A stretch of 64,000 bases of DNA, from the NCBI GenBank assembly GCA_030950585.1, contig JAUZRG010000051.1:607-64606 (forward strand), in the 5' to 3' direction. Origin of the DNA: Mariprofundaceae bacterium (GTDB lineage Bacteria; Pseudomonadota; Zetaproteobacteria; Mariprofundales; Mariprofundaceae). How positions within the stretch are numbered: the first letter of the stretch is position 1; each line of letters opens with the position of its first letter. Shown one piece after another: positions 10,682 through 60,500 of the stretch. Made by a program: the position numbers and the translations under genes. A model generated the notes under the pieces. The model ran no database searches. It was given only the letters and a program-made list of their open reading frames with translations, and was not told where the DNA came from.

Positions 10682-10718
10682 ATCAGCCTCGCATTCCACG
10701 CCCGCACAGGAGATTAAC

Positions 10719-10871: not shown

Positions 10872-10887
10872 TACACACATCAACCCA

Positions 10888-10919: not shown

Positions 10920-10935
10920 CTTATAAAGCTAGAAC

Positions 10936-11826: not shown

Positions 11827-11875
11827 TTATTCCTCCATTAACAGGTATTGAACCTGCATTTGTATAAAACATACT

Positions 11876-12454: not shown

Positions 12455-12482
12455 TTATTTTTACTACCTTTCTTTTTAAAAT

Positions 12483-40960: not shown

Positions 40961-42644
40961 TCAAAAATTAAAATCAACACCTGCGGGCTTCACAAGACCA
41001 AGCAGTGATTGAAACATTTGTGTCACCTTTAAAGCTATTCTACTGTCGTTATCACCATCACTTTTCACCGATGTAATCTCACCCGCATCATCATATTCAA
41101 CATCAATACCACCCACATCCTTCATCTGAATATGACTTGGTTTACCTAACTGATTATAACGAAAACGCATCACTCGCTCTTTTTCTATCATTTGAATGAT
41201 TCGCCCCTGATCAGCAGAGCCTTCTTTGCCATACAACAAGTCAACACGCTTTCCTAAGTGGTTCTCAGCATGGCTTAAGTGACCTTGTGCATTATAAGCA
41301 AAAGCAGACCATGTCGAAGCCCCATCATTCCAATGCTTATCCACACGACTAATATGATGATGGATGGCATCATAGCTAATGTTTATAGTGGTCGAAGGTG
41401 TTATTTTTTCAATGAAACGCTCACTGTCAGGAGCATAACGAAAATGTGTGACATAGCCCTCTCGCTCGATGCGCAAAGGCAAACCTGATCGAGTCAACTC
41501 TGTTTTGGTCGTCACACCCTGCTGACGAAATTCTCGATGTGTCAACCAAGAGTGACCTCCATTCAATGACTTAAACCAGAAACGAAGTTGCTGTTCCGTT
41601 TTAAGCCCCCGATAAGTCTTTCTTTTAACTTCAACATCCCATGATTGATCACCCGTATAAGTAAACACACGTTGCACACGGTTTTGATCCACAGTCGCCA
41701 CCACAAGCTGTGAATCAGATTCATAACGAATCGTTTCACGTGAAACAAAAGGTGATGACTGAACGGCGATCAAGCGAGCTTGATCATCATACCAATAATT
41801 AAAACCCTTTTTTTTTTGCATTTCGACTATAGAGCAACACAGCTCTATCACCGTAAATATAATAACTTTCTTGAGAGTTTTGAGAAGAGATAAGATCAAC
41901 TCGCCCTTGCCTATTCAAGCTCAACTGTAGCCCATGACCTGCTTTATCTTCAATGCGAATAGCATCCAAATCATAACTGAGTTGTAAGAATGACTTATCC
42001 TTGTGCCAAAGACGAAATAATCGACCTTGGGAATCAAAATCATGGGTTAAAATTCCATTGACAGTATGACGGTAACCCCAAGGCATCGCTTTTAAATCAT
42101 GACAAGCGCAACCATGAGTCTCCCACTTCTGAGAATCTGTCGTCACAAAATCATAAGCCATACCCAAGCCCACAGCATGCTGCCACTGCTCTAAACGCTC
42201 AGAAGCATGCTCACGCAAAGACTGATACCATTTATCACTTTTTTTACTTTGATTGTCTTGCATAAAAGATCGTATTGTTGCAACGGATTGTGATGCCATC
42301 TTTCCCTGATCAGATCCACGCTGGAACCATGTGGCTTTGCCATGACCACTTTCTTGTAACACGATCGCATCTGGCATAAACGTCAGTTGTGTTTCAAATG
42401 TTGAGCCCCAACCAAGACCAAACCAACCCACATAAGAACTGTTTGAACGATAATAACGTGATAGTGAGATATTTAATGAATCAAGCCTGACAACATCTTG
42501 ATACTGTTTTTGATAAGAACCTGTTTTTAAATCGACTTCTGCCCATGCGCTCATGGCATTCATCGTTACAAAAAAGAATAAAACCAAACATAAAATAAAA
42601 TCACATGATTTTGAACATAAGCCATACTGCCAGTATCGCATCAC
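40961..42644 (-). pseudogene. Secreted YD/RHS-repeat protein, reading frame broken at an A10 tract (two ORFs of 281 and 312 aa in the track); possibly phase-variable
   Basis: The N-terminal ORF has a signal peptide (..MSAWA|EV) and the typical YD-shell start (VDLKTGSY...LSRYYRSNS...GLGWGSTFE). The C-terminal ORF carries YD-type repeats (FRYAPDSERF, FAYNAQGHLSH, FRYNQLGKP, VEYDDAGEITSV). Removing one A from the tract joins them in frame as ...YIYGDRAVLLYSRNAKKKGFNYWYDDQARLIAV..., giving ~560 aa. Confidence 0.7.
41808..41817 (-). repeat. Homopolymeric A10 (coding strand) tract at the frameshift point of the YD-repeat gene
   Basis: I counted ten consecutive T on the plus strand (41808..41817). 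Both overlapping ORFs read Lys-Lys-Lys-Gly-Phe across it in different frames. Confidence 0.9.
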
Positions 42645-42674: not shown

Positions 42675-45041
42675 TCATAGTCCCGTTAAAGCACCCCGAA
42701 CCACCCAACTAAAGTTATCAATTTCAAAAGGTTTCTTCACAATGGTTTCGGCACAGCCTAAGCCGTTATCAAGCGAATCTTCTTCATGATAACCTGTAAT
42801 AAAAACAATTTTTACATTAGACTGACATTCACGAATCGCTTTTGCAGCTCCCACACCACCCAAGCCTGGCATGACAACATCTAAAACGACCAAATCAATC
42901 TCACTTTCTCTGGCCATAAATATTTCAACAGCCTCTTGACCATCTTTTGCTGTGATCACACGATACCCCATCAACTCCAAAGCATCGCAAGTCATTTCAC
43001 GCACGACTGCTTCATCATCAGCAATTAGAACTGTTTCTCCCTGACCTTCTGCTAAAGCCTGTTTTATTGGTTTTTCTTCCACTTGAGTTGGTGCATGCAA
43101 CAAAGGTAAATAAGCATGAAATGTGGAACCCACACCCAGCTCACTCTCCACATTGATATAACCACGGTGTGACTTCACAGCACCATACACCATTGATAAA
43201 CCCAGTCCTGTTCCTTTATGACCTTTGGAAGTAAAGAAAGGTTCAAATATCTTTTTAATATTATCCGTCTTCATGCCACAGCCATTATCTTGAATGCTTA
43301 AATGTGCAAACACACCAGCAATAGCCCCGCGATTTTTTTGTAGAAAATTCTGATCAGCTTCATAAGTCTCAAGGCAGACCTTAATACTAGGTTGATCCAC
43401 ACCTGTTAACGCATCTCGTGCATTAATAATTAAGTTAAGTAACATTTGTTGAAGCAGGGTCATATCACCTGTAACCGATAGTGATTCATGACAAATATCA
43501 TACATTAAATCAATTTTTTCAGGTACCGACGTTTTATGTAAATTCAACGTTTCTTTAATTAAAGCATTCAAAAATACTGGTTTCATATCAACAATGCCTT
43601 TACGTGAAAAGGTGAGCATTTGCTGAATGGTTTGCGCTGCACGCGAACTTAATGCTTCAAGCTGCACAAGGTGATCCATCACATCTTGTGACTTACTCGC
43701 CTTAATCTTGGCCATGTACATATGACCATTCATCCCCGCTAAAACATTATTAAATTCATGTGCAATACCACCAACCATAGCGCCAACAGCTTCCATTTTT
43801 TGCGCTTGCATAAAACTTTCTTCTAACTTGGTATGTTCGGTAATATCATGAATGGTGCCAATCAGTTGTAAAATATTGCCTTGAGAACTCGTATGAACTT
43901 CTGTTTGCTCATGAACAATGCGCTCATCACCATTGGACAGAACAACACGCAAAACAGTATTCGTTGCCTTCCCAGCCCTTAAGCTGTTCATAATATGATC
44001 TAATTTTCCTATATCTTCAGGGTGAATAAACTGGCGACACAAGGCAATCGAAGGTTTTATTGAATCAGGATTGCTATCTAAAATATGAAACAACTCATCT
44101 GAGAAATAGATATCATCATCTGAGATATTCCACTCCCAACCACCTAAATGAGAAATATGCTGTGCTTTTTCAAGACGGAGCTTCACCTTACGCAAAGTCG
44201 TTTCTATTTTTTGAGCATTGTTAATTTCTGATAAAATCGCGCAATAATGCGTTAATCTTTTTTTCTGATTGTAGATACCGCTAATATGCGCCCAGACATT
44301 GTAATCTTCTCCAGACTTGCGTCTAAACAATAACTCACCTTGCCATTCACCTTGTTCAATTAAGGCAGCAAATAACAACTCATGTTTTTTCACATCACTA
44401 TACTCAGACGTAAAATCAATAATCTCGTGGCCTAAAACGTCGTTTTCACTCAAGCCACTTAACTGAGAAAAGGCAGGGTTAATGCGTTCAACTACACCTT
44501 TTTCATCTGTGATCACCACGCTTTCGTGTGTGTCATGAATGGCTTGATCGGCCAAAATAAGCTGAGACTCCGCGCTTTCACGCAAAGCAACCTCTCGTGT
44601 TAACTTCAAATTATTGACTTCTAATTTCTTATTGTGATATTTTAGTGCTTGATGTGTGCGATAAAGATCAACAAATATATCAACCTTAGATATTAAAATC
44701 TGCGGCTGAATAGGCTTCATCACATAATCAACAGCACCGCTTGCATAAGCCTTTACTTCCATCGAACCTTCACGATCAAATGCCGTTAAAAAAACAATCG
44801 GGATACGTTGACAACTTTCTTTTGACTTTAAGAGCTGAACGGTTTCAAAACCATCTAAACCGGGCATTTGAACATCCATTAGAATCACTGCAAAATCTTG
44901 ATCTTTTAATAAAATTTCAAGAGCAGCCTCGCCAGATGAAGCACAAACCAATTCACGATCATCGGCCTCAAGCAATGGCTCCAGAGCCAATAAATTCGCT
45001 TCTATATCATCAACAAGAAGAATTTTAATCGGTTGATTCAT
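42675..45041 (-). CDS. Hybrid sensor histidine kinase: REC - coiled coil - PAS - PAS - HisKA - HATPase - REC
   Basis: 788 aa. The N-terminal receiver has ILLVDD...LMDVQMPGLDG...LTA. The H-box is GIAHEFNNVL, with N/G boxes NLIINARDA, DNGCGM and GTGLGLS. The C-terminal receiver has VLIADDE...VLDVVMPGLGG. Confidence 0.88.
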   Translation of the reverse strand: MNQPIKILLVDDIEANLLALEPLLEADDRELVCASSGEAALEILLKDQDFAVILMDVQMPGLDGFETVQLLKSKESCQRIPIVFLTAFDREGSMEVKAYASGAVDYVMKPIQPQILISKVDIFVDLYRTHQALKYHNKKLEVNNLKLTREVALRESAESQLILADQAIHDTHESVVITDEKGVVERINPAFSQLSGLSENDVLGHEIIDFTSEYSDVKKHELLFAALIEQGEWQGELLFRRKSGEDYNVWAHISGIYNQKKRLTHYCAILSEINNAQKIETTLRKVKLRLEKAQHISHLGGWEWNISDDDIYFSDELFHILDSNPDSIKPSIALCRQFIHPEDIGKLDHIMNSLRAGKATNTVLRVVLSNGDERIVHEQTEVHTSSQGNILQLIGTIHDITEHTKLEESFMQAQKMEAVGAMVGGIAHEFNNVLAGMNGHMYMAKIKASKSQDVMDHLVQLEALSSRAAQTIQQMLTFSRKGIVDMKPVFLNALIKETLNLHKTSVPEKIDLMYDICHESLSVTGDMTLLQQMLLNLIINARDALTGVDQPSIKVCLETYEADQNFLQKNRGAIAGVFAHLSIQDNGCGMKTDNIKKIFEPFFTSKGHKGTGLGLSMVYGAVKSHRGYINVESELGVGSTFHAYLPLLHAPTQVEEKPIKQALAEGQGETVLIADDEAVVREMTCDALELMGYRVITAKDGQEAVEIFMARESEIDLVVLDVVMPGLGGVGAAKAIRECQSNVKIVFITGYHEEDSLDNGLGCAETIVKKPFEIDNFSWVVRGALTGL

Positions 45042-45163
45042 CTTTTATTCTCCACGGCATTATGCCAGATATGCGATACCATCATTAAAACTAAACACAC
45101 CAATGGTTTCAACTCAAGGCCACGACTATGGCTTGATCTCTATTTTTTTCAAAAACATCATAC

Positions 45164-45739
45164 TTATGTTAAAAATAAATGCTGTATAAAATCATTCGTT
45201 TTCATGTTTTTTGCTGTCGGAACGCACTGAATAGCTGCTTCAGGCATAAAAGGAAAAGCTGCCTCACTAGGGTCTTCCACCAAACAAACGCCTCCTAGAC
45301 GCTCAATATATGCCAAACCTTCTGAGCCATCACAACCCATCCCCGTTAACACCATCCCAATCAAACGACATTGAAACACATCTGCAGCTGATTCAAATAA
45401 AATATTAATAGAAGGTCGACAACTATGTACCAGCTCATCTTGAGATAAGGACATCATCGTGGAGGATTCAATCATCAAGTGATAATCAGCAGGAGCGATA
45501 TAAACATGGCCAGCAAGAATACTCATTTTATCTTCTGCCTCTAACAATGGTAATGGGCAAATATCAGACAAAACATCACATAAATAATGCTTACCATCCG
45601 CTTTTTGATGCACCACTATAAAAATAGGGCAAGGGCAACTTTGAGGTAATTGTGACAAAAACTTTAACAGAAAATCAATACCACCTGCCGAAGCGCCGAT
45701 CACAATCGCATCAATATGACGGTATGGGGGTGCAAACAT
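45164..45739 (-). CDS. cheB: CheB-type protein-glutamate methylesterase, catalytic domain only (no receiver domain)
   Basis: 191 aa. GASAGG (Ser nucleophile), VVHQ (His) and LTGMGCDG (Asp) are spaced as in the CheB catalytic domain. No REC domain is present. Confidence 0.8.
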   Translation of the reverse strand: MFAPPYRHIDAIVIGASAGGIDFLLKFLSQLPQSCPCPIFIVVHQKADGKHYLCDVLSDICPLPLLEAEDKMSILAGHVYIAPADYHLMIESSTMMSLSQDELVHSCRPSINILFESAADVFQCRLIGMVLTGMGCDGSEGLAYIERLGGVCLVEDPSEAAFPFMPEAAIQCVPTAKNMKTNDFIQHLFLT

Positions 45740-45741
45740 AC

Positions 45742-46545
45742 TTAATTGCTCTTTCGATAAATGCGATGTTGTGCATTAAAAGCCTGAAAATGACCTTGAA
45801 GATGAACACTTTCTTTTTGACCCACAGCCAATAAACCTAAAGGACGTAAACTTTGATGCATTAAGCCCAATACTTTCGTTTTTAGTTCTGTATTAAAGTA
45901 AATCATCACATTACGACACAAGATAATTTCAAACTCTTGAAAAGGACCATCCGTTGCTAAATTATGATTACAAAAAGTTATTTTATCTTTCAAGCTGGGT
46001 TTGAAAATAACATTACCATAACGAGCAACATAATATTCTGAAAAATCTTCACAGCCCCCTGCTGCATGATAATTATGAATCGCACTTTTTATATGAGACA
46101 ATGGGTATATCCCTTCACGGGCAATTTTTAATGCTTTTTCATTAATATCGGTTGCATAAATACGCGCACGATCAAGCAAACCTGCTTCCAATAAAAGAAT
46201 AGCCAATGAATAAACTTCTTCACCTGTGGAACAACCTGCATGCCAAATATTAAATAGAGGGAAAGTATGCAAAACAGGAATTACTTCTTGGCGAAGCACA
46301 CGATAAAATTCAGCATCGCGAAACATCTCAGTCACATACACGGAAATATCTAATAAAAGCTGATCCATCGCTTCAGCATGATGTAAAACACGGTCTTGCA
46401 ATAACGAGATCGTTTCAAGCTTATGAATCATCATATGCCTTTTAATGCGTCGTTTAATAGATGCGCGCGCGTAATCTCTAAAGTCATGCCCATACTTTTG
46501 ATAAATGCCTTCCAACAATAATGTTAATTCAATATCCTCAATCAC
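45742..46545 (-). CDS. cheR: CheR-type protein-glutamate O-methyltransferase
   Basis: 267 aa with an N-terminal helical CheR domain (YGHDFRDYARASIKRRI), a SAM-binding region (IWHAGCSTGEEVYSLAILL) and ILCRNVMIYF. A 2-nt gap separates it from cheB. Confidence 0.85.
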   Translation of the reverse strand: MIEDIELTLLLEGIYQKYGHDFRDYARASIKRRIKRHMMIHKLETISLLQDRVLHHAEAMDQLLLDISVYVTEMFRDAEFYRVLRQEVIPVLHTFPLFNIWHAGCSTGEEVYSLAILLLEAGLLDRARIYATDINEKALKIAREGIYPLSHIKSAIHNYHAAGGCEDFSEYYVARYGNVIFKPSLKDKITFCNHNLATDGPFQEFEIILCRNVMIYFNTELKTKVLGLMHQSLRPLGLLAVGQKESVHLQGHFQAFNAQHRIYRKSN

Positions 46546-46603
46546 AATATATATCCAAATATTTCTCGTTGCATATTAAACCTACTCTCATCAATGAAAG
46601 ACA

Positions 46604-49600
46604 TTAATCATGCAGCCAAACACGCATCAAAGAAATCAATTTATCCGTATCAATGGGTTTGGTAATATAATCTGATGCACCCGCAGCGATACACTGCTCA
46701 CGATCCCCTTTCATGGCTTTGGCTGTCAATGCAATCACAGGTAAATTTTGATGTGCTTTTATCTTCCTTATTTCTCTGGTGGCAGTATGACCATCCATTT
46801 CTGGCATCATCACATCCATCAATACCAATGAGATTTTATCGGCATGCCTTTCTAAAACAGACAAGGCTTCCAAGCCATTTCTTGCTGTATGAATAATCAA
46901 CTCATGACCTTCTAAATAACTAGAAAGAGAGTATATATTACGAATATCATCATCAACCAACAAAACAACGTTACCTGCCAACGTCACTTCTTGTTCTCGC
47001 ACATGATTAATCAAACTTTGCCTGTCTTTTGACATATCCTCTTCTAATTGGTGTAAGAACAAGCTTGTTTCAGCCAAAAGTCGATCTGGAGAATATGAGC
47101 CTTTCACAATAATGCTTTTTGACATCCCTTGTAATCGCTCAACTTCGTCAACATTTAAATCTTTGCCTGTATGCACAATGATAGGCAACACATGACCTTG
47201 ATTAATATGACCTTCTTCTTGCGCAATCACTTCTAACACTTGCTCTCCACTCATATCAGGCAAACTCAAATCAAGAACCATGCAATCAACATGGACTTGC
47301 CTTAGAATATCTAAAGCTTCCTGCCCTGTAGAAGCTGTTAATAACTCCACGTTATTTGAAGCCAACAACTGACTCATCGCATCCTGTTGGACGGGGTCAT
47401 CTTCAGCAATGAGTAAACGGCAAATATCTTTTTCAAGAAAAGCACTGATCTCATTAATCGTATGATCCAAACGACTTTTATCCGCAGGCTTATGTACAAA
47501 AGAAAGCGCACCAGCATTAAGCACGCGCTGTTCAGATTCTTCATCCATACAAGAAATAATATGCACAGGAATATGCTTTAATTTAGGATGTTGTTTTAAA
47601 CGATCCAAAACACTCATGCCGTCTAAAATAGGCAGTTGTAAATCAAGCAAGATCGCATCAGGCACATATTGATGTGCTAACGACAATGCATGATCACCAC
47701 GCATCGCATTGATGGCTTTAAAGCCATGTTCTCGTACCAATGTTTGTAAGATTTCTGAAAAGGTTTCATCATCTTCAATAATTTGAATCGTTCGATCACT
47801 GCTGGTGATGCTATCGCGGTCATCAGCCATTGGGTTAGGAATTGCATCCTGTGTGCTAACGTCGTGATCCAATACCTCTATCTCTTGTATAGGCTGTATT
47901 TTCGTTATGATACTTTTCTTTCTTGTATGAGGTATTTTCTTTTCTTCAGGCTCATCTATGCCACAGCTAATTGGAATCACTAAACTAAAAGAACTTCCTA
48001 CTCCTTGCTCACTTTGAACAGAAATACCCCCACCCAATAAGCTTGAAAGTTCACGACAAATGGATAAACCCAAGCCAGTTCCTCCGTACTTACGACTTGT
48101 GGAACCATCTTCTTGCTGAAAGGCTTCAAAAATATCATTAAGCTTCTTCTGTGCAATGCCAGCCCCCGAATCAGTCACCGTAAAACATATTTGCTCTGCA
48201 TCACATACCTCGACCTTAAGGCTAACCTCACCAGTGCTTGTAAATTTAAAGGCATTAGAAAGTAGGTTTTTAAGCACTTGTTTCACACGCATACTGTCAC
48301 TAAATATCATTTCTGGTGCTGTATCAGCAAGCTCAACCACAAACATCACATGATTACCTTCTGCCACATGAGAAAAATCACGTTGCATCGCATCGGTTAA
48401 ATCACGTAAAGGAAAACGATGTGGATCCAAAACCATTTTGCCCGCTTCAACCTTAGCCAAATCAAGAATATCATTAATTAAAGCCAATAAATCGATACCT
48501 GAACCATAAATGGTTTGTGCAAATTTCACTTGCTTTTCGCTTAAATTATTGCCTTTATTCTTAGCCAGCATATCTGAAAGAATAAGCAAACTATTCAGAG
48601 GTGTGCGTAACTCATGTGACATATTGGATAAGAAATCTGATTTATACTGACTTGCTCGTTCTAACTCAGCGGCTTTGATTGATAGCGACTGGGTTGATTC
48701 CGCTAAACCTTTTCGCTGTTCTTCCACCATTTTATTTTTGGCAAGCAACTCATCATTATTCAGACGCAATTCTTCTTCTTGCGCATGCAGCTCTTCTGTT
48801 AATGCCCGAGACTCTTCCAATAATTTTTCCGTACTCCACGCTTGCTGCACAGACTGCAAAGCCATGCCTAAAATAGGCGATAACTGCTTCAGCATCTTCT
48901 CTTGAATCGGGCTAAGTCCATGCACACTTGCCAACTCAATCACACCAATTAATGCTGTATCTGCTAACAATGGTACTTCTATCAGAAGTTGAGGTGCGAC
49001 CTTACCTAAAGAGGACTGAATATAAAGATAACCACTGGGAAGCTCCTCAGTCATAATCATTTTCTTTTCAAGCGCACACTGCCCTGTCAAACCCTCGCCC
49101 AGTTTAATCGTCTGAGCCAAGTCATGCCCCGAACAAGCATAGTGACTTTGAAAGGCAAGCCAATTTAATTCTTCTTCCCAAAGATAAAAAGAAGCATAAC
49201 TAACCCCCAGCATCGGTGGTAAAACTTGCATGATCATCGTTGCAATAGGCTTGATTTCTTTTTGGCCTTGTAGGTTTAAACTAATTTCAGCCAAACATGA
49301 TTTTAACCAATCTTGCTCTTCTGCATTGGCCGTGCTTTCACGCAAGGACTGTGTCATATGCAAAAGCGAACGTCTTAATTCATCTTTATCATGTTGAACA
49401 TGAATCTCAACATTGTAATTTCCACGTGCAACCTCTGCTGCCATAGCCGATAAAGATTGTAAGGTTTGGTTCATCTGCAATAAAGACTGACCCAAAGCAT
49501 CCGACTCCCCGCAAACATCAAGCCCATGACTAAAATCACCCTGAGCAATCCGTATCGACTGATCAATGGTGTGCTGCATACTTCGGTCTAGTTTACGGCC

Positions 49601-51094
49601 TGCTTCTATCAGGTCTGTAATCTCATCATCACCACGGTAAAAAATACGATCATGCCCAACTTCACCTTGAGAGAGTAATTTTAGCTGTGTGGTTACTTCT
49701 CTCATCGGTTGCATCAAACGACGTGCAAACCAAGTGCCCACAATCAAAGCAATAAAAATAAAAACACTGACCGTTATCATAATATATTGCTTAAAACTGA
49801 GTTCAAAGGAGCGCACAGCAGCAAAGGCTTCTTTAGCATCCACTTCACTCACCAACACCCAGTTAAGATTGGGAATATTTAAGGGGGTGTATGCAGCAAG
49901 CACAGAGACGTTGCGATAATCTTCATATTCACCAACACTAACCTCTCCTTTAAAGGCTGCCTTTGTGGCAGGTGTGTCGACCAAAAGATAGCCGATCACA
50001 TCATGATGCGACTGAATGTTTTTAAGCGTTTTTTCTGGCACACCTGCTTGAGCCAAATGGTTTAAAAACAATGTTTCATCTTCAGAATGAAAGCGTGAAG
50101 AAGAGCGCATGGTTAAATCACTGCCCACAAGGTAACTTTCACCAGTCTGACCTCCACCTGCTTTTTCCCAATTGAAGTTATTGGTCATCACCCGATTAAT
50201 TTCACTAATCGGTATCTGTACTACCAAAACACCAAGAAAAGTCCCTTCATGTTCAATAGCTGCTGATAGAAAGATGGATTGAGCTTCATAAGATGGCGTA
50301 TATCGTGCCATATCAGTCAAGCCAACCTCTTTGTTTCCATGCAGCTGCATCGCACTACGATAAGCTTGTGCCAAACCAGTATTTGCCCAAGGACCGCCTT
50401 TCAAACGTGTACCAAAATCAACCTCTTTAAACACGGAGTAAATCACACGGCCTTCTGTGGGTTCGATCAAAAACAAGTCATAATAACCCATGTATTGTTG
50501 AATTTGCCTAAGGTGAAAATGATATTTTTCATGTGCTTTTTTGTGTTCGCTATGCTGCAGAGGCTCGGTATGGATATTATCCACACCATTTAATTTATCT
50601 TTTTGCCCCAAAGGATTTTTATTGGCAATATAATCATACTGCAACACGGTGGCACTATCATCCATCGTACCTAAGATTTTTGAAATCTGATAAGGCTTAG
50701 TCGTCGGATTTTTTTTAATGTATTGCCAACTAAAATCTTGCTTATAATATTTTTCAACAGCTTGGTGCATCTCACTGAGGTTTTCTAACGACTTTAGCTC
50801 ATGCTTGGCTTTCTTCTCTGCCTCAATAAAGGTCGTCATCGCTTCAATCACCATTAAACTATTGGCTAAACTCAAGAGTTGCTTGCTAATACCATGAAAA
50901 TAATCTTCTATTTCCATTGTTTTTGCACTGCGAGTTGCCTCTAGCTGTGAAAAAGCCATTTCACGTGCCATCTTATCAGCAGAAGATGAAGCCAAAAAGT
51001 ACGTTAAAATACCTGATGATAATACGGCGAAAATGGTTAATCCAATCATCACGACACGTAGCTTGAGGCTCAAATTAAAACGCATCTGCATCAC
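46604..51094 (-). CDS. Giant hybrid sensor histidine kinase: double-Cache-like periplasmic domain - HAMP array - GAF - coiled coil - HisKA - HATPase - 3x REC
   Basis: 1496 aa. Two TM helices bracket a ~400-aa periplasmic domain of the kind usually found in MCPs (Cache-like). HAMP follows TM2 (RRLMQPMREVTTQL). GAF has GEGLTGQCALEKK. The H-box is SNMSHELRTPLNS, with N/G boxes LSNAFKFT, DSGAGI and GGTGLGLSI. The three receivers have IIEDDE..LLDLQLPILDG, LIAEDD..VLDLSLPDMSG and LLVDDD..LMDVMMPEMDG. Confidence 0.88.
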   Translation of the reverse strand: MMQMRFNLSLKLRVVMIGLTIFAVLSSGILTYFLASSSADKMAREMAFSQLEATRSAKTMEIEDYFHGISKQLLSLANSLMVIEAMTTFIEAEKKAKHELKSLENLSEMHQAVEKYYKQDFSWQYIKKNPTTKPYQISKILGTMDDSATVLQYDYIANKNPLGQKDKLNGVDNIHTEPLQHSEHKKAHEKYHFHLRQIQQYMGYYDLFLIEPTEGRVIYSVFKEVDFGTRLKGGPWANTGLAQAYRSAMQLHGNKEVGLTDMARYTPSYEAQSIFLSAAIEHEGTFLGVLVVQIPISEINRVMTNNFNWEKAGGGQTGESYLVGSDLTMRSSSRFHSEDETLFLNHLAQAGVPEKTLKNIQSHHDVIGYLLVDTPATKAAFKGEVSVGEYEDYRNVSVLAAYTPLNIPNLNWVLVSEVDAKEAFAAVRSFELSFKQYIMITVSVFIFIALIVGTWFARRLMQPMREVTTQLKLLSQGEVGHDRIFYRGDDEITDLIEAGRKLDRSMQHTIDQSIRIAQGDFSHGLDVCGESDALGQSLLQMNQTLQSLSAMAAEVARGNYNVEIHVQHDKDELRRSLLHMTQSLRESTANAEEQDWLKSCLAEISLNLQGQKEIKPIATMIMQVLPPMLGVSYASFYLWEEELNWLAFQSHYACSGHDLAQTIKLGEGLTGQCALEKKMIMTEELPSGYLYIQSSLGKVAPQLLIEVPLLADTALIGVIELASVHGLSPIQEKMLKQLSPILGMALQSVQQAWSTEKLLEESRALTEELHAQEEELRLNNDELLAKNKMVEEQRKGLAESTQSLSIKAAELERASQYKSDFLSNMSHELRTPLNSLLILSDMLAKNKGNNLSEKQVKFAQTIYGSGIDLLALINDILDLAKVEAGKMVLDPHRFPLRDLTDAMQRDFSHVAEGNHVMFVVELADTAPEMIFSDSMRVKQVLKNLLSNAFKFTSTGEVSLKVEVCDAEQICFTVTDSGAGIAQKKLNDIFEAFQQEDGSTSRKYGGTGLGLSICRELSSLLGGGISVQSEQGVGSSFSLVIPISCGIDEPEEKKIPHTRKKSIITKIQPIQEIEVLDHDVSTQDAIPNPMADDRDSITSSDRTIQIIEDDETFSEILQTLVREHGFKAINAMRGDHALSLAHQYVPDAILLDLQLPILDGMSVLDRLKQHPKLKHIPVHIISCMDEESEQRVLNAGALSFVHKPADKSRLDHTINEISAFLEKDICRLLIAEDDPVQQDAMSQLLASNNVELLTASTGQEALDILRQVHVDCMVLDLSLPDMSGEQVLEVIAQEEGHINQGHVLPIIVHTGKDLNVDEVERLQGMSKSIIVKGSYSPDRLLAETSLFLHQLEEDMSKDRQSLINHVREQEVTLAGNVVLLVDDDIRNIYSLSSYLEGHELIIHTARNGLEALSVLERHADKISLVLMDVMMPEMDGHTATREIRKIKAHQNLPVIALTAKAMKGDREQCIAAGASDYITKPIDTDKLISLMRVWLHD

Positions 51095-51212: not shown

Positions 51213-53426
51213 TTACTTTCGAACCGTTCTCCAAACACCATGCCATTCTAAAGAGGAGCGCGTGGATAAGTCATCGCAACGCTTTGCCATATGAATAGCC
51301 ACAATATCTTCAAACTGCTCACCGCCACTGCGAAAGATCACCGCAGCTTCTTTAAAATAACCCAAACGATACAACCTTAAAGCCGAAGCATAAGAGACAA
51401 GCATCGGCTCCCAGTAATCATAAGAATGTTTATCTCCAAGCAGTTCATAGACCTTAATTGACTCTGTCTTGCCCACCAGAATGACCGTATCAACTTCTCT
51501 GCAAGTAAATTCATGACCCACTTCTTGCCATGTCGATTCGCCAATCATGCGTTGGCTACCATATTGTTTATTCAAAGATTCAAGCCGAGATGCTGTATTG
51601 CCTGCATCCCCCATAAAGGTGTAATGCAATCGATGTGCAGAGCCAATATTACCCACAACCATCCGTCCTGAGTTAATGCCAACCCGAATACTAAGCGGAC
51701 AATTAATATCGCTAAAGACATTGCGAGCTTTGTATAAAGCCTGCTGAATATCTAAGGCGGCCTTGCAGGCTCTCTCTGCATGATCGTCGTCATGAATAGG
51801 CGCGCCAAATAAAACAATGAGCCCATCGCCAGTCAAACGATCAATGGTGCCTTTATGCTTAAAGATCACAGGTGTTGCTTCTTGAAAAAATAAATTAATA
51901 TAACGCACAGTATCCTGAGGAGATAACATTTCTGAAATGGCTGTAAAACCGGCAACATCCACAAACATCACAGACATATTTCTTTCATCACCACCCAATT
52001 CAGTGAGCTGATGATGATCCATCACATCGGTCACTACAGCGGGATCAATAAAGGATTCAAAAGTATGGCGTAAACGAAGACGTTGTTTTAATTCTGCACC
52101 ATAATTCATGATTGTAAGCACGACAAAGCAACTGATCAACGTAAAAACAGGCAAAACGATATAAATGACCATGCCGTATTGAAAAGAAACATAAGCCATC
52201 AGTAAAATAAGACTAAACATCAGGGTAGATAACATGCCAAAATAACGCCTAACTAAAACATGACCAAAAAAAGCATATAAAACAGCAATCAATGTGATCA
52301 ATAAAAACTCAAGCAAACGCTGAGGAGTAGCATGCTTGAGCACTTGATCATTTAAGATATTCGCAATGATATTCGCTTGTATTTCAACAGTTGAGACTTG
52401 TTTATGATAGGGAGTTTGATAACGAGGCTCCAAGCCCTTCGCCGTCAAACCAAGTAAAACCAATTTACCTTCAAAATCTTGACGGCTTGTCTTACCAGAT
52501 AAAACATCCCTCGCTGAAATGACTTGAAAGGTTTCAGGCTCTGAATAAAATAAAATACGAAACAAGCCTTCTGAGCTTGTCGTCACAATATTTTCTGCAA
52601 TATGTATATCAATATGACCCGTTCGCACCTCGGCTTTTAACACAGCATACCCTTGCCAATGCTGCAAAGCCGCCAGAGCCAAGGGTGATAATAAATAACC
52701 TTGATAATTAAGCATTAAGGGTATTTCTCGCACCTTTGTCAAAGCATCGGGCATTAAACGAATGAACCCGCTATATGCACCATTGACGGTCTCTGAATAT
52801 TCATTTTTTTTGATGCTATGAACCTTGCCAACATTCATCAAAGACCAATCAGCGGCATCAATGCCTTGATAAGCATTGGCAAGAATGAGATCTAACTGAT
52901 CATTGCGATAAAAATCATTGAAAAAGAAAGCATCATTTGCATCCACTTGATAGCCCATGACCGTGGGTGTACTCGCTAAGACTTGTAATAAATAACGATC
53001 TTCTTTTGCGTATTTTTCTAAACTCTGCAAGATAATAGGAACATTTAAGTTCTTTTGTTTAAACCAAGAGATAGCATTTTTCAACACATTCTCTTCAGAA
53101 CTTGAAAATAAAAATGACGTGGCAATCGTGCGTGCTTTTTGCCTCGATATAGTATCTAAAAGACGAGCAACTTTATGACTAGGCCACGGCCAAGACCCCT
53201 CTTCTTGCAAAGAGTCATAATCAATCGCAACAATCACGATAGGATTGTTTTTTGGTTTTTGAATGGTGCTTAGTTGAAAGTAGTAGTCAATAATACTTGT
53301 TTCAGCACGTTGAATAAGTTTTGGTTGCACCCAAAAAAAAACGAGAAAAATGCCGTAAACAAGACCAACACCTATAAAATTTCGATCATGAAATAAAGAA
53401 TACATACACCCCTCAAGAATGAGCAT
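51213..53426 (-). CDS. CHASE2-domain membrane adenylate/guanylate cyclase (class III) with C-terminal helical (TPR-like) extension
   Basis: 737 aa. The CHASE2 signature is IVIVAIDYDSLQEEGSWPWP. TM helices follow, then a cyclase core (VMFVDVAGFT...GDGLIVLFGAP...RVGINSGRMVVGNIG). The start could be the Met at 53405. Confidence 0.85.
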   Translation of the reverse strand: MLILEGCMYSLFHDRNFIGVGLVYGIFLVFFWVQPKLIQRAETSIIDYYFQLSTIQKPKNNPIVIVAIDYDSLQEEGSWPWPSHKVARLLDTISRQKARTIATSFLFSSSEENVLKNAISWFKQKNLNVPIILQSLEKYAKEDRYLLQVLASTPTVMGYQVDANDAFFFNDFYRNDQLDLILANAYQGIDAADWSLMNVGKVHSIKKNEYSETVNGAYSGFIRLMPDALTKVREIPLMLNYQGYLLSPLALAALQHWQGYAVLKAEVRTGHIDIHIAENIVTTSSEGLFRILFYSEPETFQVISARDVLSGKTSRQDFEGKLVLLGLTAKGLEPRYQTPYHKQVSTVEIQANIIANILNDQVLKHATPQRLLEFLLITLIAVLYAFFGHVLVRRYFGMLSTLMFSLILLMAYVSFQYGMVIYIVLPVFTLISCFVVLTIMNYGAELKQRLRLRHTFESFIDPAVVTDVMDHHQLTELGGDERNMSVMFVDVAGFTAISEMLSPQDTVRYINLFFQEATPVIFKHKGTIDRLTGDGLIVLFGAPIHDDDHAERACKAALDIQQALYKARNVFSDINCPLSIRVGINSGRMVVGNIGSAHRLHYTFMGDAGNTASRLESLNKQYGSQRMIGESTWQEVGHEFTCREVDTVILVGKTESIKVYELLGDKHSYDYWEPMLVSYASALRLYRLGYFKEAAVIFRSGGEQFEDIVAIHMAKRCDDLSTRSSLEWHGVWRTVRK

Positions 53427-53512: not shown

Positions 53513-56500
53513 TTACAGTGTTTTTTCGTTATGTGCCCGTTGTGCATAACCTGTTCCAGCTGGTAACAACCTTCCTAGGATCACATTTTCTTTTAAGCCT
53601 TTGAGCCAATCAATTTTTCCTGCAAGAGAAGCTTCTGTCAAAACACGTGTGGTTTCTTGGAAAGAAGCAGCAGAAATAAAGGAATCGGTACTCAAGGATG
53701 ACTTCGTGATACCAAGCAAAATAGGACGGAAGGCAACAGGTGCCTTTTCTTGCTCTGCTAAAGTACGGTTAAGCATAATCACATCTTTACGCTCAACTTG
53801 TTCACCAGCAATATAAGTCGATGCACCCGGATCAAGAATAATGACCTTACGCATCATTTGACGAACAATCACTTCGATATGTTTGTCGTTAATCTTAACA
53901 CCTTGCAAACGATACACTTCTTGAACTTCATCAATTAAGTATTTTGCCAACGCTTCAATACCAAGTACGGCCAAAATATCTTGTGGTGCAGGAGAACCTT
54001 CCATCAAACGGTCACCACGACGGACTTTATCACCTTCTTGCACAATAATTTGACTGCTCTTAGGAATTTGATACTCAAGTTGATCGCTACCATCATCAGG
54101 ATTAACGTGAACCCGACGCTTACCACGAATATCCTTACCAAAAGTGATATAGCCATCTTTTGCTGAGATAAAACTTAGGTTTTTAGGTTTGCGTGCTTCA
54201 AATAATTCAACAACACGAGGCAAGCCACCTGTAATATCTTTTGTTTTAGATGTTTCACGTGGAATACGAGCTAAAATATCACCCGCTTTCACATGTTCAC
54301 CATTTTCAATGTTTAAGATAGCACCTGGTGATAAGAAGTAACGTGCTGGCGCATTGGTACGAGCCAAAATAAGTGGGTCGCCTTCAGGATTAGATGGATC
54401 AACAATCTGAACCTGTGGTTGCAAGCTCTTCTTCGCATCACTGTTTTGAATCACAATATGACTACTTAGACCAGTCACTTCATCTACTTTTTCAAGAAGT
54501 GTCGCGCCTTCAACAAGATCTAAATAACGCACTTGTCCACTCACTTCAGCAATAAATGGCATCGTATAAGGATCCCAATCTGCCAAAGTTTGGCCCGCTT
54601 TAATTTGATCGCCACTTTCAACTCTCAAGCGTGCACCATAAGGAATACGGTTACGTTCACGTTCTTTATGTTGACTGTCTTGAACGATGATTTCTGTATG
54701 ACGGTTAATTACAACCCGAATACCATCCAAATCATTCACCGTAATTTCATGCTCAATGGTCACAGAACCACTAAACTTACTATCTAAGCTTGCTTGTTCT
54801 GCTGAGCGCGATGCGGTTCCGCCGACATGGAATGTTCTCATGGTAAGCTGTGTACCCGGCTCACCAATTGATTGTGCAGCAATAACGCCAACAGCTTCAC
54901 CAATACTTACTGGCGATGCATGGGCAAGATCACGGCCATAACAAGCGGCACAAGTACCTTCTCTGGCTTCACAAGTTAACACAGAACGAATCTTAACGGT
55001 TTCAACATCATTTTCTTCTAGTATCTTAACTAACTCTTCGTTTAGCATCGCACCAGAAGGAATGATTTCATCACCACTAATCGGATGGAATGCAGCTTCA
55101 GTCAACACACGACCAAGCACACGCTCGGCTAAGGGTTCAACAACTTCACCACCCTCAGTCAACGCACTAATCGTGATACCATCTTCAGTGCCACAATCTA
55201 ATTCACGAACGATGCAATCTTGTGCTACATCCACAAGACGACGGGTCAAATAACCTGAGTTTGCTGTTTTCAGTGCCGTATCTGCCAAGCCTTTACGCGC
55301 ACCATGTGTGGAGATAAAGTATTGTAAAACGGTTAAGCCTTCACGGAAGTTTGCAGTAATAGGCGTTTCAATAATGGAACCATCTGGCTTAGCCATCAAA
55401 CCACGCATACCCGCTAACTGACGAATTTGCTGCGCAGAACCACGAGCGCCCGAATCAGCCATCATATACACAGGGTTAAAGCTTTTACTTTTCTCGATTT
55501 CACCTGTTTCAGACTCAAGCGTATCGTAGGATAAGTTATCCATCATCGATTTTGCCACTTTTTCTGTGGTGTGTGTCCATAGATCGATCACTTTATTATA
55601 ACGTTCGCCACTCGTAATCAAACCATCAGCGTATTGTTTTTTAACACCCTTAACTTCATCTTCAGTTTGACTCACAAGGAACTGTTTATCGTCTGGAATG
55701 ACAACATCATCAAGGCAAAAAGATGCACCTGAAAGCGTTGCATAAGTATAGCCCATCAATTTAAGACGATCAGCAAGTAGAACAGTGGCCTTATTGCCTG
55801 CTTTCATATAACAATCTTCAATTAAATCTGCGACTGTTTTCTTGGTTAACTCACAGTTAATACGGTCAAAAATTAATTCTTCTGGTAAGACACTGGAAAG
55901 AATCGCACGGCCGACTGTAGTTTTTTCACGTTTACCATTAATACGGCAAGTAATACGTGCATGTAAGTTTAATTTTTTAGCATCGAAAGCACGTAACACT
56001 TCATCAGAAGAGGTGAACACCATGCCTTCCCCTTGCTGAAAAGGACGCTCACGGGTCATATAATAAAGACCCAAAACAATATCCTGTGTCGGAACAATCA
56101 CAGGCTTACCTGTAGAAGGTGACAACACATTATTAGAGGCCAACATTAAGGCACGCACTTCGGTTTGAGCTTCAACACTCAAAGGAACATGCACAGCCAT
56201 TTGATCACCATCAAAATCAGCATTGAATGCTGTACAGATCAATGGATGCAATTGAATCGCTTTACCTTCAACCAAGATAGGTTCAAAACCTTGAATACCA
56301 AGGCGATGCAAGGTTGGCGCACGGTTCAACATAATGGGATGTTGATTAATCACTTCCGCAAGAATATCCCATACTTCGGTTATTTCTTGCTCAACTAATT
56401 TTTTAGCAGCCTTAATGGTCGATGCCAAACCACGTGCTTCAAGTCTATTATAAATAAAGGGTTTGAATAATTCCAAAGCCATTTTTTTAGGTAAACCACA

Positions 56501-57595
56501 TTGATGTAGTTTTAATTCAGGACCAACCACAATCACAGAACGACCTGAGTAATCCACACGTTTACCCAACAAGTTTTGACGGAAACGACCTTGCTTGCCT
56601 TTAATGATGTCTGAAAGTGACTTCAATGGGCGACGGTTATTACCTGTAATCGGTTTGCTGCGACGGTCATTATCAAACAACGCATCCACAGCTTCTTGCA
56701 ACATACGTTTTTCATTGCGTGTGATGATTTCAGGTGCATTCAATTCAATCAAACGCTTCAAACGGTTGTTTCTGTTGATCACACGACGATAAAGGTCATT
56801 GAGATCACTGGTTGCAAAACGACCACCATCAAGAGGCACAAGCGGACGCAACTCTGGAGGTAATACAGGCACAACATTAAGCACCATCCATTCAGGACGG
56901 TTACCTGAACCAATCATGGATTCAACAGTTTTTAAACGCTTGGTTAACTTAGAAAGACGAGTCTCTGCTTTTGTCGCTGAAATTTGCGCACGCAAGTTTT
57001 GACTAATTTCAACCAAATCAATGTCTTTAAGCATCTCTTGTAATGCTTCAGCACCCATGCCCACACGAAACTCTTCGCCGTACTCATCAAAGGCTTCCAT
57101 GTATTCATCTTCAGTCATAATTTGGTATTCATCCAAACTACTTAGACCGGGATCAAGCACAACATAGGATTCAAAATATAAAACACGTTCAAGTTCTTTT
57201 AATGTTTTATCCAACAACAAACCAATACGTGAAGGTAAGCTTTTTAAGAACCAGATATGAGCAACAGGTGCGGCAAGATCAATATGCCCCATGCGCTCAC
57301 GACGAACATTTGAGAGAATAACTTCAACACTACACTTTTCACACACAACACCACGGTGCTTTAAGCGTTTGTATTTACCACACAAGCACTCGTAATCTTT
57401 AATAGGGCCAAATATTTTTGCACAAAACAAACCATCACGTTCTGGTTTAAATGTTCTGTAGTTAATGGTTTCAGGCTTCTTAACCTCGCCATAAGACCAC
57501 GAGCGAATTTTTTCAGGACTGGCTAGCCCAATGCGTAAACCATCAAAGTGCTCAACATTCTTAGGCTTGCGAAATAGATTCAAAATATCTTGCAT
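53513..57595 (-). CDS. rpoC: DNA-directed RNA polymerase subunit beta'
   Basis: The start is set at [33 protein letters not shown] (ATG 57595), 4 nt after the rpoB stop and with AAGGAAGAGG upstream. NADFDGD and other universal motifs are present. The ORF-track 5' extension overlaps rpoB. Confidence 0.97.
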
Positions 57596-57599
57596 TTGA

Positions 57600-60500
57600 T
57601 TAGTCCTCTTCCTTAGCTGCTCTATGGGGTTCAATTTCAATGGCAAGTGCGTTAATTTCCTTAGTCATCACATTGAATGATTCTGGAATACCAGCTTGGA
57701 AAGTCATATCGCCACTAACAATGGATTCATACACACGGGTACGACCTACCACGTCATCTGATTTCACAGTCAACATTTCTTGTAGGGTATAAGCAGCACC
57801 ATAAGCTTCAAGTGCCCACACTTCCATTTCACCAAAACGCTGCCCACCAAATTGTGCTTTACCACCTAATGGTTGTTGGGTTACCAGTGAGTAAGGTCCT
57901 GTAGAACGTGCATGAATTTTTTCATCAACCAAATGATGAAGTTTCAAGATATACATATAACCAATGGTTACTGGCGTATCAAAAGCTTCACCTGTTTTAC
58001 CATCAAACAAGGTTACTTGCCCTGATTCAGGTAAACCAGCCATGGTCAACATCTCACGAAGTTGCACTTCTTTCACGCCATTAAAGGCTGCTGAACCGAT
58101 CGGAACACCACCAACAAGGTTACCCGCAAGCTCACGGATTTCTTTGTCTGTTTTGCCCTTAACACCAGCAACACTGCTATCATCACCTTTGTAGATTTCT
58201 AAAAGAAATTTACGAATTTTTGCGGCAGTGGCTTTTTGCGTGATCATGGCCTCAATGCGATGACCCAAACCTTTAGCTGCAAAACCAGAGTGAATTTCAA
58301 AAATTTGTCCAATGTTCATCCGCGAAGGAACACCCAACGGATTCAAGATAATATCAACAGGTGTGCCAGCTTCGGTGAAAGGCATATCTTCTTCTGGTAC
58401 AATAACAGAGATAACACCTTTGTTACCATGACGACCAGCCATTTTATCGCCTGGTTGAAGCTTACGCTTCACAGCAACAAAGACTTTCACAATTTTAATG
58501 ACACCCGGAGAAAGTTCAGAACCTTCACGAACTTTTGCTACTTTCTCTTCAAAGCGAGCTTCAAGATCACCACGTTCTTTTTCCATACTTTCTAAAATAT
58601 CATCAATGCGAGCATGAACGTCAGCGTCTTCGACTTCGATACGACGCAATTCTTTCATACGCAGACCTGAGATATAATCTTCAGTAATCAAATCGCCTGG
58701 GCGTAAACTGGCAGCTTGGGCAACGGTATGACCAATAAACATTTTTCTTAAACGTTCTTGGGTATTACCTTCAAGAATACGACGTTCTTCTTCTTTATCG
58801 CGATAAAGCTGTTCAATAGCACTTTCTTCAATTTGCTGTGCACGCGTGTCTTTCTTATCGCCACGGCGTGTAAAGACTTGAACATCAATAACCACACCTT
58901 CATTACTTGGTTTAACACGTAATGATGAGTCACGAACATCCGTTGCTTTTTCACCGAAGATCGCTCTTAAAAGTTTTTCTTCAGGTGATAGTTGGCTTTC
59001 ACCTTTAGGGGTGATCTTACCGACTAGAATATCGCCAGCCTTAACTTCAGAACCAATTTCCACGATACCACACAAATCAAGGTGACTTAATGCTTCTTCG
59101 CTGACATTGGGAATATCTCGGGTAATTTCTTCGTCACCTAGTTTAGTTTGACGCGCCACGGCTTCAAACTCTTCAATGTGAACAGAAGTATAAACATCAT
59201 CACGCACAACTTTTTCAGAGATAATAATCGCATCTTCAAAGTTGTAACCACGCCAAGGCATCAATGCCACCAAGGCATTACGGCCAAGCGCAAGTTCACC
59301 CATATCTGTTGAAGGACCATCTGCAATAATGGTTCCACGTTCAACATATTCACCCACTTTCACAAGTGGACGCTGGTTAAAGCATGTATTTTGATTCGAG
59401 CGCAAATATTTATACAAACGATAAATATCAACACCTGTTGTACCTTGAACTTGCTCGTCTTCATCCACACGGATAACGATACGACTACTATCAACACGCT
59501 CAATAATACCCGCACGTTTTGCAGCAATAACCACGCCCGAGTCATGAGCAACAGCAGCTTCCATGCCTGTACCCACAAGTGGTTTTTCAGAGCGCAACAA
59601 TGGCACAGCTTGACGCATCATGTTTGATCCCATCAAGGCCCTGTTTGCATCATCGTGCTCAAGAAAAGGAATCAAACCAGAAGAAACAGAAATCACCTGT
59701 GAAGGCGATACATCCATATAATCTATTTCTTTAGGACCAACCAATAAGAATTCACCGTTTTGACGACATTGGTTGGTATCAGAAATAATCTTACCATCTT
59801 TTGCTACGCCCACATTTGCTTGCGCAATGATATGTTCAGCTTCTTGAATCGCAGATAGATACTGAACTTCTGAGGTCACAACACCACCGACCACTTTACG
59901 GTAAGGGGTTTCAATAAAGCCAAAGTCATTCACTTTTGCATAACAAGCCAAAGAGTTAATCAAACCAATATTTGGACCTTCCGGTGTTTCAATCGGACAC
60001 ATACGACCATAATGGGTAGGATGAACATCGCGCACTTCAAAGCCAGCACGTTCACGAGAGAGACCACCAGGGCCTAAGGCAGAAAGACGACGTTTATGCG
60101 TCACTTCTGAAAGTGGGTTGGTTTGATCCATAAATTGTGATAATTGAGAAGAACCAAAGAACTCTTTAATCGAAGCGATCAAAGGCTTGGCATTCACAAT
60201 ATCAGAAGGCATCATTTCTGAAATATCACCATTACTTAAACGTTCACGAACAGCTCTTTCCATACGGATTAAACCAATGCGAACTTGGTTTTCAAGCAAT
60301 TCACCAACAGAACGAACACGACGGTTACCTAAATGATCAATATCATCAACTTCGCCAATCACATCACGTAAATTAAGTAATTTTTCTAAACTGATTAAAA
60401 TATCTTCGTTGCGAAGTGTATCGTGCGTCAAAGGAACAGCATCGTTAGAGATACCCAAACGACTATTCAACTTCATACGGCCAACACGAGACAAGTTATA

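Follow-up and report, generated by a model that had tools for sequence, protein, structure and literature searches.

A candidate RsbK/CfcA-type methylatable hybrid kinase cassette with CheR and CheB in a Mariprofundaceae bacterium

Described kinases encoded beside CheR-type enzymes

Methylation of a histidine kinase S-helix by a CheR-type enzyme has been demonstrated only for RsbK of Bacillus cereus, a kinase of the order CHASE3-HAMP-GAF-S-helix-HK-CA-REC whose S-helix is modified by the CheR-type protein RsbM (PMC4574943). This methylation is needed to keep sigma B signalling off and is proposed to recruit an inhibitory receiver domain; the same work describes '127 RsbK-like sensor kinases in 10 phyla', and B. 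cereus has no esterase paired with RsbM (PMC4574943). The genomic association of RsbK with CheR has been credited to de Been and colleagues (PMC12848376). Here, we describe a related arrangement in 64,000 nucleotides of a Mariprofundaceae bacterium (contig JAUZRG010000051.1, positions 607 to 64,606 of the forward strand; the window hereafter), where a hybrid histidine kinase (HK1), a CheR-type methyltransferase, a CheB-type methylesterase and a second hybrid kinase (HK2) are encoded in series. Taken together, the comparative data suggest, with moderate confidence, that this locus is an RsbK/CfcA-type methylatable hybrid kinase cassette in which CheR modifies the S-helix of HK1. The four genes all lie on the minus strand with intergenic gaps of 58, 2 and 122 nucleotides, as the list of open reading frames (ORFs) gives exactly and as the original prediction, made from this sequence alone, had stated:

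46604..51094, minus strand: HK1, membrane hybrid histidine kinase, 1496 amino acids (ORF and Pfam)
45742..46545, minus strand: CheR-type S-adenosylmethionine (SAM)-dependent protein-glutamate methyltransferase, 267 amino acids (Pfam CheR_N and CheR)
45164..45739, minus strand: CheB-type methylesterase/deamidase, catalytic domain alone, 191 amino acids (Pfam CheB_methylest, residues 12-179)
42675..45041, minus strand: HK2, hybrid response regulator/histidine kinase, 788 amino acids (Pfam)

The likeness to RsbK/RsbM is one of layout: in both, a membrane kinase with the order sensor-HAMP-GAF-S-helix-HisKA-HATPase-REC is encoded beside a CheR-type gene. RsbK has a CHASE3 sensor and one receiver (REC) domain, whereas in HK1 the sensor is dCache-like, HAMP forms an array and the REC domains number three. 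RsbM is an orphan, with neither a paired CheB nor a REC-kinase tier, whereas the window encodes both CheB and HK2; output in B. cereus runs through the PP2C phosphatase RsbY and sigma B. No Bacillus was among the matches listed in a plasmid tblastn search. Because RsbM acts on RsbK, the premise of the original prediction that CheR and CheB have no known targets other than methyl-accepting chemotaxis proteins (MCPs) is wrong.

The gene order of the window (hybrid kinase, CheR, CheB, REC-containing kinase) is also that of the Pseudomonas loci CfcA, BmsA and 3082-3079. In P. putida, the CHASE3/GAF hybrid kinase CfcA, encoded in cfcABCDE, is needed for the diguanylate cyclase CfcR; the CfcD receiver is 48% identical to the CfcR receiver, and the CheR/CheB pair beside CfcA was excluded from chemotaxis (PMC4951495). 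P. brassicacearum 3082-3079 and P. alkylphenolica BmsA have the same gene context as CfcA (PMC8175716). Two Pseudomonas loci retrieved here (L021 and L069) consist of a CHASE3-GAF-HK-kinase with three REC domains, CheR, CheB, a REC-HK protein and a REC protein; their phospho-accepting His lies at 503 and 502, respectively, compared with H496 in CfcA, and their architecture suggests that they are orthologous to the cfc loci. The Pseudomonas cassette differs from that of the window in three respects: a fifth gene is present; the sensor of CfcA is CHASE3, salt-responsive according to cited work, rather than dCache-like with a HAMP array; and the output, CfcR (REC-GGDEF-EAL), is known, whereas the window contains no such gene. 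The portions of the literature surveyed report no role for CfcB or CfcC. With CfcA, BmsA, P. brassicacearum 3082 and RsbK/RsbM all having been studied, such neighbourhoods cannot be described as lacking a functional study, as they had been in the original prediction; the idea of kinase methylation is not new, and the cassette is widespread and already described.

Three further systems share parts with the window. In the canonical chemosensory adaptation of E. coli, CheR and CheB have the same folds, and the MCP substrate resembles the S-helix in being a long coiled coil with heptad Glu-Glu or Glu-Gln pairs whose second residue is conserved. However, the canonical system comprises an MCP signalling domain, CheA, CheW and a CheB receiver, all absent from the window cassette, and the substrate helix proposed here would instead feed a DHp histidine kinase directly. 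CheB-CheR-PAS-kinase fusions (Acidiphilium WP_011930530; Paraburkholderia WP_015004245), of the kind that KEGG names 'CheB/CheR fusion protein', hold the same parts in one polypeptide. Their coiled coil precedes a PAS_10 domain, whereas that of HK1 lies between GAF and DHp, and their CheR domains are 30-34% identical to the window CheR, as against 42-50% for the CheR proteins of cassettes. Finally, transfer of phosphoryl groups from a hybrid kinase to a REC-kinase is shown for LvrA/LvrB and reported for KipF/PakF (PMC5863495). There, as with HK1 and HK2, the gene after that of the hybrid kinase encodes a REC-kinase, but in contrast to the window no CheR/CheB is reported for those pairs in the text surveyed. 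Matches of HK1 and HK2 to the NCBIfam LvrA and LvrB models are sub-threshold; as the scores fall far below the cut-offs, the two proteins are not members of these families.

Distribution of the cassette and of its Glu-Glu-Leu motif

The cassette was sampled from both ends. An alignment of 32 CheB homologues (A1) retrieved 80 loci from species-representative genomes, which were annotated with iterated hidden Markov models (HMMs) built for this analysis and cross-checked with Pfam on 15 of their proteins; HK1 genes were sampled through a second alignment (A2) and three plasmid loci. The 80 CheB-seeded loci fall in 14 phyla: Bacteroidota, Cyanobacteriota (including Sericytochromatia), Desulfobacterota, Planctomycetota, Verrucomicrobiota, Pseudomonadota (alpha, beta and gamma), Fusobacteriota, Bdellovibrionota, Armatimonadota, Acidobacteriota, Actinomycetota, Myxococcota, Nitrospirota and Gemmatimonadota. 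In 66 of the 80, an intact sensor-GAF-HisKA-HATPase-REC-REC-REC kinase adjoins CheR and CheB, which are followed by a REC-(PAS)-HisKA-HATPase(-REC) kinase; the exceptions involve contig ends, frameshifted genes and five Nostoc loci without an adjacent HK1. The reservation made in the original prediction, that the gene order might lack conservation in related genomes, is removed by conservation across 14 phyla.

The five Nostoc loci (L049, L062, L063, L077 and L079) carry CheB and then a REC-PAS-HK-REC gene, with CheR also present in L049, L062 and L079. No HK1-type gene was found in their available upstream sequence, which amounts to 10 kb in four of the five. Calothrix L073, unlike these, has an HK1 gene.

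Sampling from HK1 shows that the core pair consists of HK1 and the REC-kinase, between which CheR-CheB, or CheR by itself, may or may not be inserted. The neighbours are known for 107 HK1 genes, a set biased because its first loci were seeded with CheB: 76 have CheR and CheB, 7 CheR only, 23 neither and 1 CheB only. Variants with the order HK1, CheR, REC-kinase were observed in Deinococcus deserti plasmid 2 (L084, 144948-152420) and in L092, L104, L140 and L145; these CheR-only cassettes parallel the orphan methyltransferase RsbM of B. cereus. A Streptomyces sp. NBC_01558 plasmid (L085, 601147-609246) carries a CheR-less HK1-type kinase, composed of a HAMP array, GAF, HK and REC, between genes for SigF and a SpoIIE/PP2C phosphatase, a partner-switching context like that of RsbK-RsbY.

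In the linker of HK1 between its GAF domain and the phospho-accepting His827 (encoded at 48614-48616), two features were delimited:

48626..48853, minus strand: S-helix, the coiled-coil linker from GAF to His827, residues 748-823 (AlphaFold2 model and Leu heptads)
48734..48823, minus strand: candidate methyl-accepting segment LLEESRALTEELHAQEEELRLNNDELLAKN, residues 758-787 (heptad acidic pairs)

Leu recurs every seven residues along this S-helix, and LLEESRALTEELHAQEEELRLNNDELLAKN holds the acidic pairs E767-E768, E774-E775 and D781-E782 at seven-residue spacing. A single-sequence AlphaFold2 model spanning HK1 residues 612-1050, poor overall (mean predicted local distance difference test score (pLDDT) 44.5) and used only for the long S-helix, predicts one unbroken helix over residues 729-823, with a pLDDT of 83-90 over approximately 761-791. 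By analogy with RsbK (PMC4574943), segment 758-787 is the part of HK1 that may accept methyl groups.

Across HK1 orthologues, the linker has the consensus LLEETQRQSEELQtQqEELRVSNEELEEQ...QQxELEQTNxQLEEQ, with Asn at heptad position a, Glu at b and c, Leu at d and Ser/Thr at g. The motif EEL-x4-EEL is nearly specific to HK1: it is present in 64/67 HK1 proteins and in 1/91 other kinases, all HK2-type proteins included, while both of its occurrences in 4,783 other ORFs are pieces of split HK1 genes. Of the two residues in a pair, the second is conserved more strongly: it is Glu in 83-94% of sequences at four of the five pairs and, at the fifth, Gln in 49% and Glu in 41%. The sites of methylation and deamidation in MCPs, with the classical consensus Glu-Glu-X-X-Ala-Ser/Thr, are characterized by just such a conserved second residue and by interchange of Glu and Gln.

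The position of the motif is likewise constrained. The first motif Leu precedes the phospho-accepting His by 37, 44, 58, 65, 72, 79, 86, 93, 100 or 121 residues, so that the distance is 2 mod 7 in all 131 of 131 proteins (58 in the window HK1). This register indicates that the motif sits on a continuous coiled coil entering the DHp helix. Consistent with change by whole heptads, the S-helix of the window HK1 is 28 residues, exactly four heptads, shorter than that of its homologue in L088, an independent locus described below.

The number of EEL triplets is associated with CheR. HK1 proteins with an adjacent CheR contain a mean of 3.65 (n=83), approximately fourfold the 0.87 of those without (n=23); collapsing linkers of more than 60% identity, a crude correction for phylogeny, leaves means of 3.81 (n=32) and 1.71 (n=7), with p=7e-4 in a Mann-Whitney test. 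Restriction of the motif to CheR-adjacent kinases was considered and rejected: CheR-less HK1 proteins of Streptomyces, Azospirillum and Mesorhizobium keep a degenerate form, in which the pairs decay to T/A/K-Glu or Glu-Gln, and the claim is accordingly limited to a quantitative association with CheR. The motif also occurs where the enzymes are fused to a kinase. Each of the four CheB-CheR-PAS-kinase fusions examined, from Acidiphilium, Paraburkholderia and two metagenome loci, has an unbroken run of three to eight N-E-E-L heptads.

Enzymes, sensors and neighbouring genes

The CheR and CheB proteins look active on the basis of their sequences. In CheB, which aligns with structures 3SFT and 1CHD, Ser17, His44 and Asp137 are invariant in the 32 homologues of alignment A1. 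CheR keeps the motifs AGCSTGEE, ATDIN and CRNVMIYF, so that its SAM-binding motifs are conserved, and its nearest solved structures are 5FTW and 1AF7. Neither enzyme is close to the NCBIfam models of its name: CheR scores 85 bits against the CheR equivalog (cut-off 435), and CheB 136 bits against the CheB subfamily model (cut-off 293). NCBIfam names for the cassette proteins as a whole are confined to generic sub-threshold kinase, CheR and CheB matches.

CheB lacks a receiver, as predicted, with CheB_methylest its only Pfam match, and the best 120 CheB homologues are all stand-alone, REC-less proteins of approximately 190-230 residues. The accompanying statement that activation of CheB normally depends on its REC domain is imprecise: this domain is inhibitory, and the catalytic domain is active when isolated from it. 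Without a receiver, the CheB of the window would be either constitutive or controlled in trans.

A search for partners of a conventional chemosensory array returned almost nothing, in agreement with the original prediction. With Pfam, neither the four proteins nor seven neighbour proteins match MCPsignal, CheW, Hpt or CheA; for HK1 and HK2, MCPsignal is absent at E<=0.01. HMMs for MCP, CheW and CheA, whose seeds were the E. coli proteins Tar, CheW and CheA (locus L081), give no match to the MCP signalling domain, to CheW or to CheA-type Hpt among window ORFs of at least 70 residues, and the 64-kb window contains no further REC or kinase gene. In 5,167 ORFs of the 80 related loci (±10 kb), there were 0 CheW and 0 CheA-type Hpt matches, and one distant MCP-signal match, in L010.

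HK1 itself reads, from the N-terminus: periplasmic dCache-like sensor, HAMP array, GAF, S-helix, HisKA, HATPase and three REC domains. Pfam places HAMP at 455-498, GAF at 617-747, HisKA at 818-885 and HATPase at 933-1042, followed by three Response_reg stretches. Its features outside the S-helix are:

49790..50977, minus strand: HK1 periplasmic sensor, approximately residues 40-435, dCache-like (sub-threshold dCache_1)
49274..49732, minus strand: HK1 HAMP array, residues 455-607 (one Pfam HAMP and two repeats read by eye)
48854..49246, minus strand: HK1 GAF, residues 617-747 (Pfam GAF_2 and GAF)
47969..48655, minus strand: HK1 HisKA and HATPase kinase core (Pfam)
46622..47791, minus strand: HK1 three receivers, residues 1102-1215, 1226-1332 and 1376-1491 (Pfam)

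The predicted GAF-kinase-REC×3 portion of HK1 stands, while its sensory portion requires milder wording. Hydrophobic, transmembrane segments at 12-30 and 438-456 flank a periplasmic domain of approximately 400 residues, in which the dCache_1 match (residues 195-416) scores 31 bits, short of the Pfam cut-off of 45; the domain is for this reason termed dCache-like only. Pfam recognizes a single HAMP; two more HAMP-like repeats, GDFSHGLDVCGESDALGQSLLQM and GNYNVEIHVQHDKDELRRSLLHM, were read by eye from the translation at approximately 506-607, and the second and third members of the array are therefore putative. All five receivers of the cassette, three in HK1 and two in HK2, keep the equivalents of CheY D12/D13, D57, T/S87 and K109.

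The sensors of other cassettes vary. In the HK1 proteins sampled with Pfam, CHASE3 is present in 5/8 (Pseudomonas, Brevundimonas, Chitinophagaceae, Schlesneria and Calothrix), and the remainder have 4HB_MCP_1 (one Nitrospirota genome), HAMP arrays (an Actinomycetota metagenome-assembled genome (MAG), L050) or no recognized sensor; a Deinococcus cassette HK1 likewise has a HAMP array. The CHASE3-GAF layout typical of cassette HK1 proteins is also that of CfcA, BmsA and RsbK. As only 5/8 have CHASE3, the N-terminal sensor is a swappable module and arguably not what defines the cassette. The dCache-like sensor with a HAMP array is a further variant, common to the window HK1 and L088.

This last locus, from JGI metagenome 3300009408, is an independent one and holds the closest long relative of the window cassette; its precomputed Pfam annotation agrees with that from the HMMs. 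Its CheB is 55% and its HK2 orthologue 61% identical to those of the window, and its HK1, which shows dCache_1 (weak) and HK_sensor_dom_bact, is 53.5% identical over 1213 aligned residues (residues 411-1496 of the window HK1). Between CheB and the HK2 orthologue of L088 lies a REC-PAS-GGDEF-EAL gene (10621-12744, plus strand). The product resembles CfcR of P. putida, has no counterpart in the window and suggests an output through cyclic di-GMP.

HK2 has the order REC, PAS, PAS, HisKA, HATPase, REC in Pfam, as had been predicted, although HisKA is matched weakly, at a sub-threshold 18.6 bits. HK2 probably accepts phosphoryl groups from HK1: the two genes, for a hybrid kinase and then a REC-kinase, both encode intact phospho-acceptor residues, and this succession holds in nearly all related loci, whether or not CheR/CheB is present. 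In a Sericytochromatia MAG (L002, 8985-11429, plus strand), an 814-residue ORF fuses a CheB catalytic domain to REC-PAS-PAS-HisKA-HATPase, with CheB preceding REC, the reverse of the order in canonical CheB. L102 contains an ORF with CheR-REC-HisKA. Both fusions may be real or may be artefacts of assembly or read-through; that of L002 hints that the HK2 receiver may control CheB in trans.

The genes around the cluster have no relation to chemotaxis according to Pfam matches of seven neighbour proteins. Upstream, on the same strand, are a CHASE2 adenylate/guanylate cyclase and then rpoC and rpoB; downstream are a DUF6531 fragment and, on the opposite strand, gltX. A promoter and terminator scan for operon structure gave counts equal to the shuffled expectation. 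The cyclase (737 residues, 51213-53426, minus strand) lies 118 nucleotides upstream of HK1, and the GAF domain of HK1, as a possible cyclic-nucleotide sensor, could couple the two. Membership of the cyclase in the cassette is nevertheless unlikely, because the close relative L088 has none at that position.

Directly downstream of HK2, a 281-residue DUF6531 ORF (41799-42644, minus strand) overlaps a 312-residue ORF without a Pfam match (40961-41899, minus strand) by approximately 100 nucleotides. DUF6531 is typical of Rhs/YD-type toxins, and the pair (40961-42644) looks like a truncated or frameshifted Rhs-type gene. Upstream, the call of rpoC from a TTG start produces an ORF that shares 47 nucleotides with the end of rpoB (ORFs 53513-57646 and 57600-61700, minus strand). 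This overlap is a mechanical artefact of the ORF call, the true start of rpoC probably lying further downstream.

The methylation substrate and the proposed signalling route

The original prediction that CheR and CheB act on a kinase rather than an MCP is probably correct, as judged from synteny, the S-helix motif with its CheR association, and the RsbK/RsbM precedent (PMC4574943). It is quite unlikely that the two enzymes instead serve a conventional MCP/CheA/CheW array elsewhere in the genome, their position in the cluster being incidental or co-regulatory. Intact catalytic residues, nearest solved relatives that are chemotaxis CheR and CheB, and the motile, chemotactic habit of Mariprofundus would all fit such a role; a CheB without REC can also act on MCPs, as in Campylobacter; and our own search for MCP, CheA and CheW spanned the 64-kb window rather than the whole MAG. 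However, the gene order is shared by loci of 14 phyla, among which there is neither CheW nor CheA-type Hpt and a single distant MCP-like ORF, both enzymes score far below the NCBIfam chemotaxis models, and the orthologous pair of P. putida was excluded from chemotaxis. The Glu-Glu motif of HK1 is, moreover, commoner where CheR is present, and in the fusion kinases it lies in cis to CheB-CheR.

A different assignment would make HK2, or another partner such as a downstream response regulator, the substrate, with HK1 supplying phosphoryl input only. This seems unlikely, though it would account for the joining of CheB to REC-PAS-PAS-kinase in L002, for the CheR-REC-HisKA ORF of L102, and for the five Nostoc loci in which CheB, in three cases with CheR, accompanies a REC-PAS-kinase without an adjacent HK1. 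Against it, HK2-type proteins lack Glu-Glu heptads, the single positive among 91 non-HK1 kinases notwithstanding, and RsbK/RsbM operates without any HK2; the CheB-HK2 fusion is explained equally well by regulation of CheB in trans by the HK2 receiver, and the fusions may themselves be products of read-through or assembly. That CheR and CheB lack enzymatic activity, serving as scaffolds or persisting as decaying remnants without a part in methylation, is very improbable. The colony phenotype of the P. putida mutants, described below, could be read in this way, but the CheB triad and the CheR SAM motifs are invariant or nearly so across phyla, and the ORFs are intact and tightly spaced, with 2 nucleotides between CheR and CheB. 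Such deep catalytic conservation points to selection on function.

Several observations weigh against methylation of the HK1 S-helix. The biochemical evidence for kinase methylation comes from B. cereus, a Gram-positive species, and the RsbM/RsbK precedent is silent on demethylation because B. cereus has no paired CheB. In P. putida, cfc mutants other than cfcA keep the crinkly colony phenotype, according to unpublished results of the authors (PMC4951495). The kinship of HK1 to RsbK and CfcA is judged from architecture and literature, and Pfam finds no CHASE3 in HK1. The S-helix of the window is among the shortest of the family, with two EEL and one DEL and a distance to His of 58 compared with a modal 86. 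Finally, the phylogenetic correction behind the EEL-CheR association is crude, and CheR-less HK1 homologues have the same coiled coil in degenerate form, so that the motif is partly a family trait.

If CheR does modify the S-helix of HK1, signalling likely involves: perception of a periplasmic signal through the dCache-like domain and HAMP array, and possibly of a cytoplasmic ligand through GAF; transmission along the continuous heptad S-helix into the DHp helix bearing His827; and methylation by CheR of exposed S-helix Glu residues. The candidates for this last step are the second residues of each pair, at heptad position c: E768, E775 and E782. The REC-less CheB would demethylate or deamidate these position-c residues. 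Methylation may alter how the coiled coil that leads into the DHp helix and drives it is charged and packed, and its level would in this way set kinase output; alternatively, it may set inhibitory docking of HK1's own receivers, as proposed for RsbK. The HK1 receivers would then pass the phosphoryl group to the N-terminal receiver of HK2, which would signal to an output regulator encoded elsewhere. A cyclic di-GMP enzyme is plausible in this role because of CfcR and the REC-PAS-GGDEF-EAL protein of L088.

In cassettes with both CheR and CheB, reversible methylation could further provide adaptation or memory, with CheB gated in trans by the first receiver of HK2. This extension is tentative and, as matters stand, doubtful; the CheB-REC-PAS-PAS-kinase fusion of L002 and the Glu/Gln-polymorphic site of the S-helix offer hints in its favour. 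The literature surveyed contains no study that demonstrates demethylation, deamidation or adaptation of such kinases. If true, the cassette would contain a feedback loop like that from CheA to CheB, built wholly from two-component parts.

Methylation-based adaptation is usually taught as a property of MCP arrays. The cassette described here ties the same enzymes to histidine kinases in at least 14 phyla, with experimental support so far for the methyltransferase half only, in one Gram-positive species, and the comparative results name E768, E775 and E782 as testable sites. For the bacterium itself, an iron-oxidising member of the Zetaproteobacteria, the cassette of the window is probably a salt-, stress- or surface-type signalling module.

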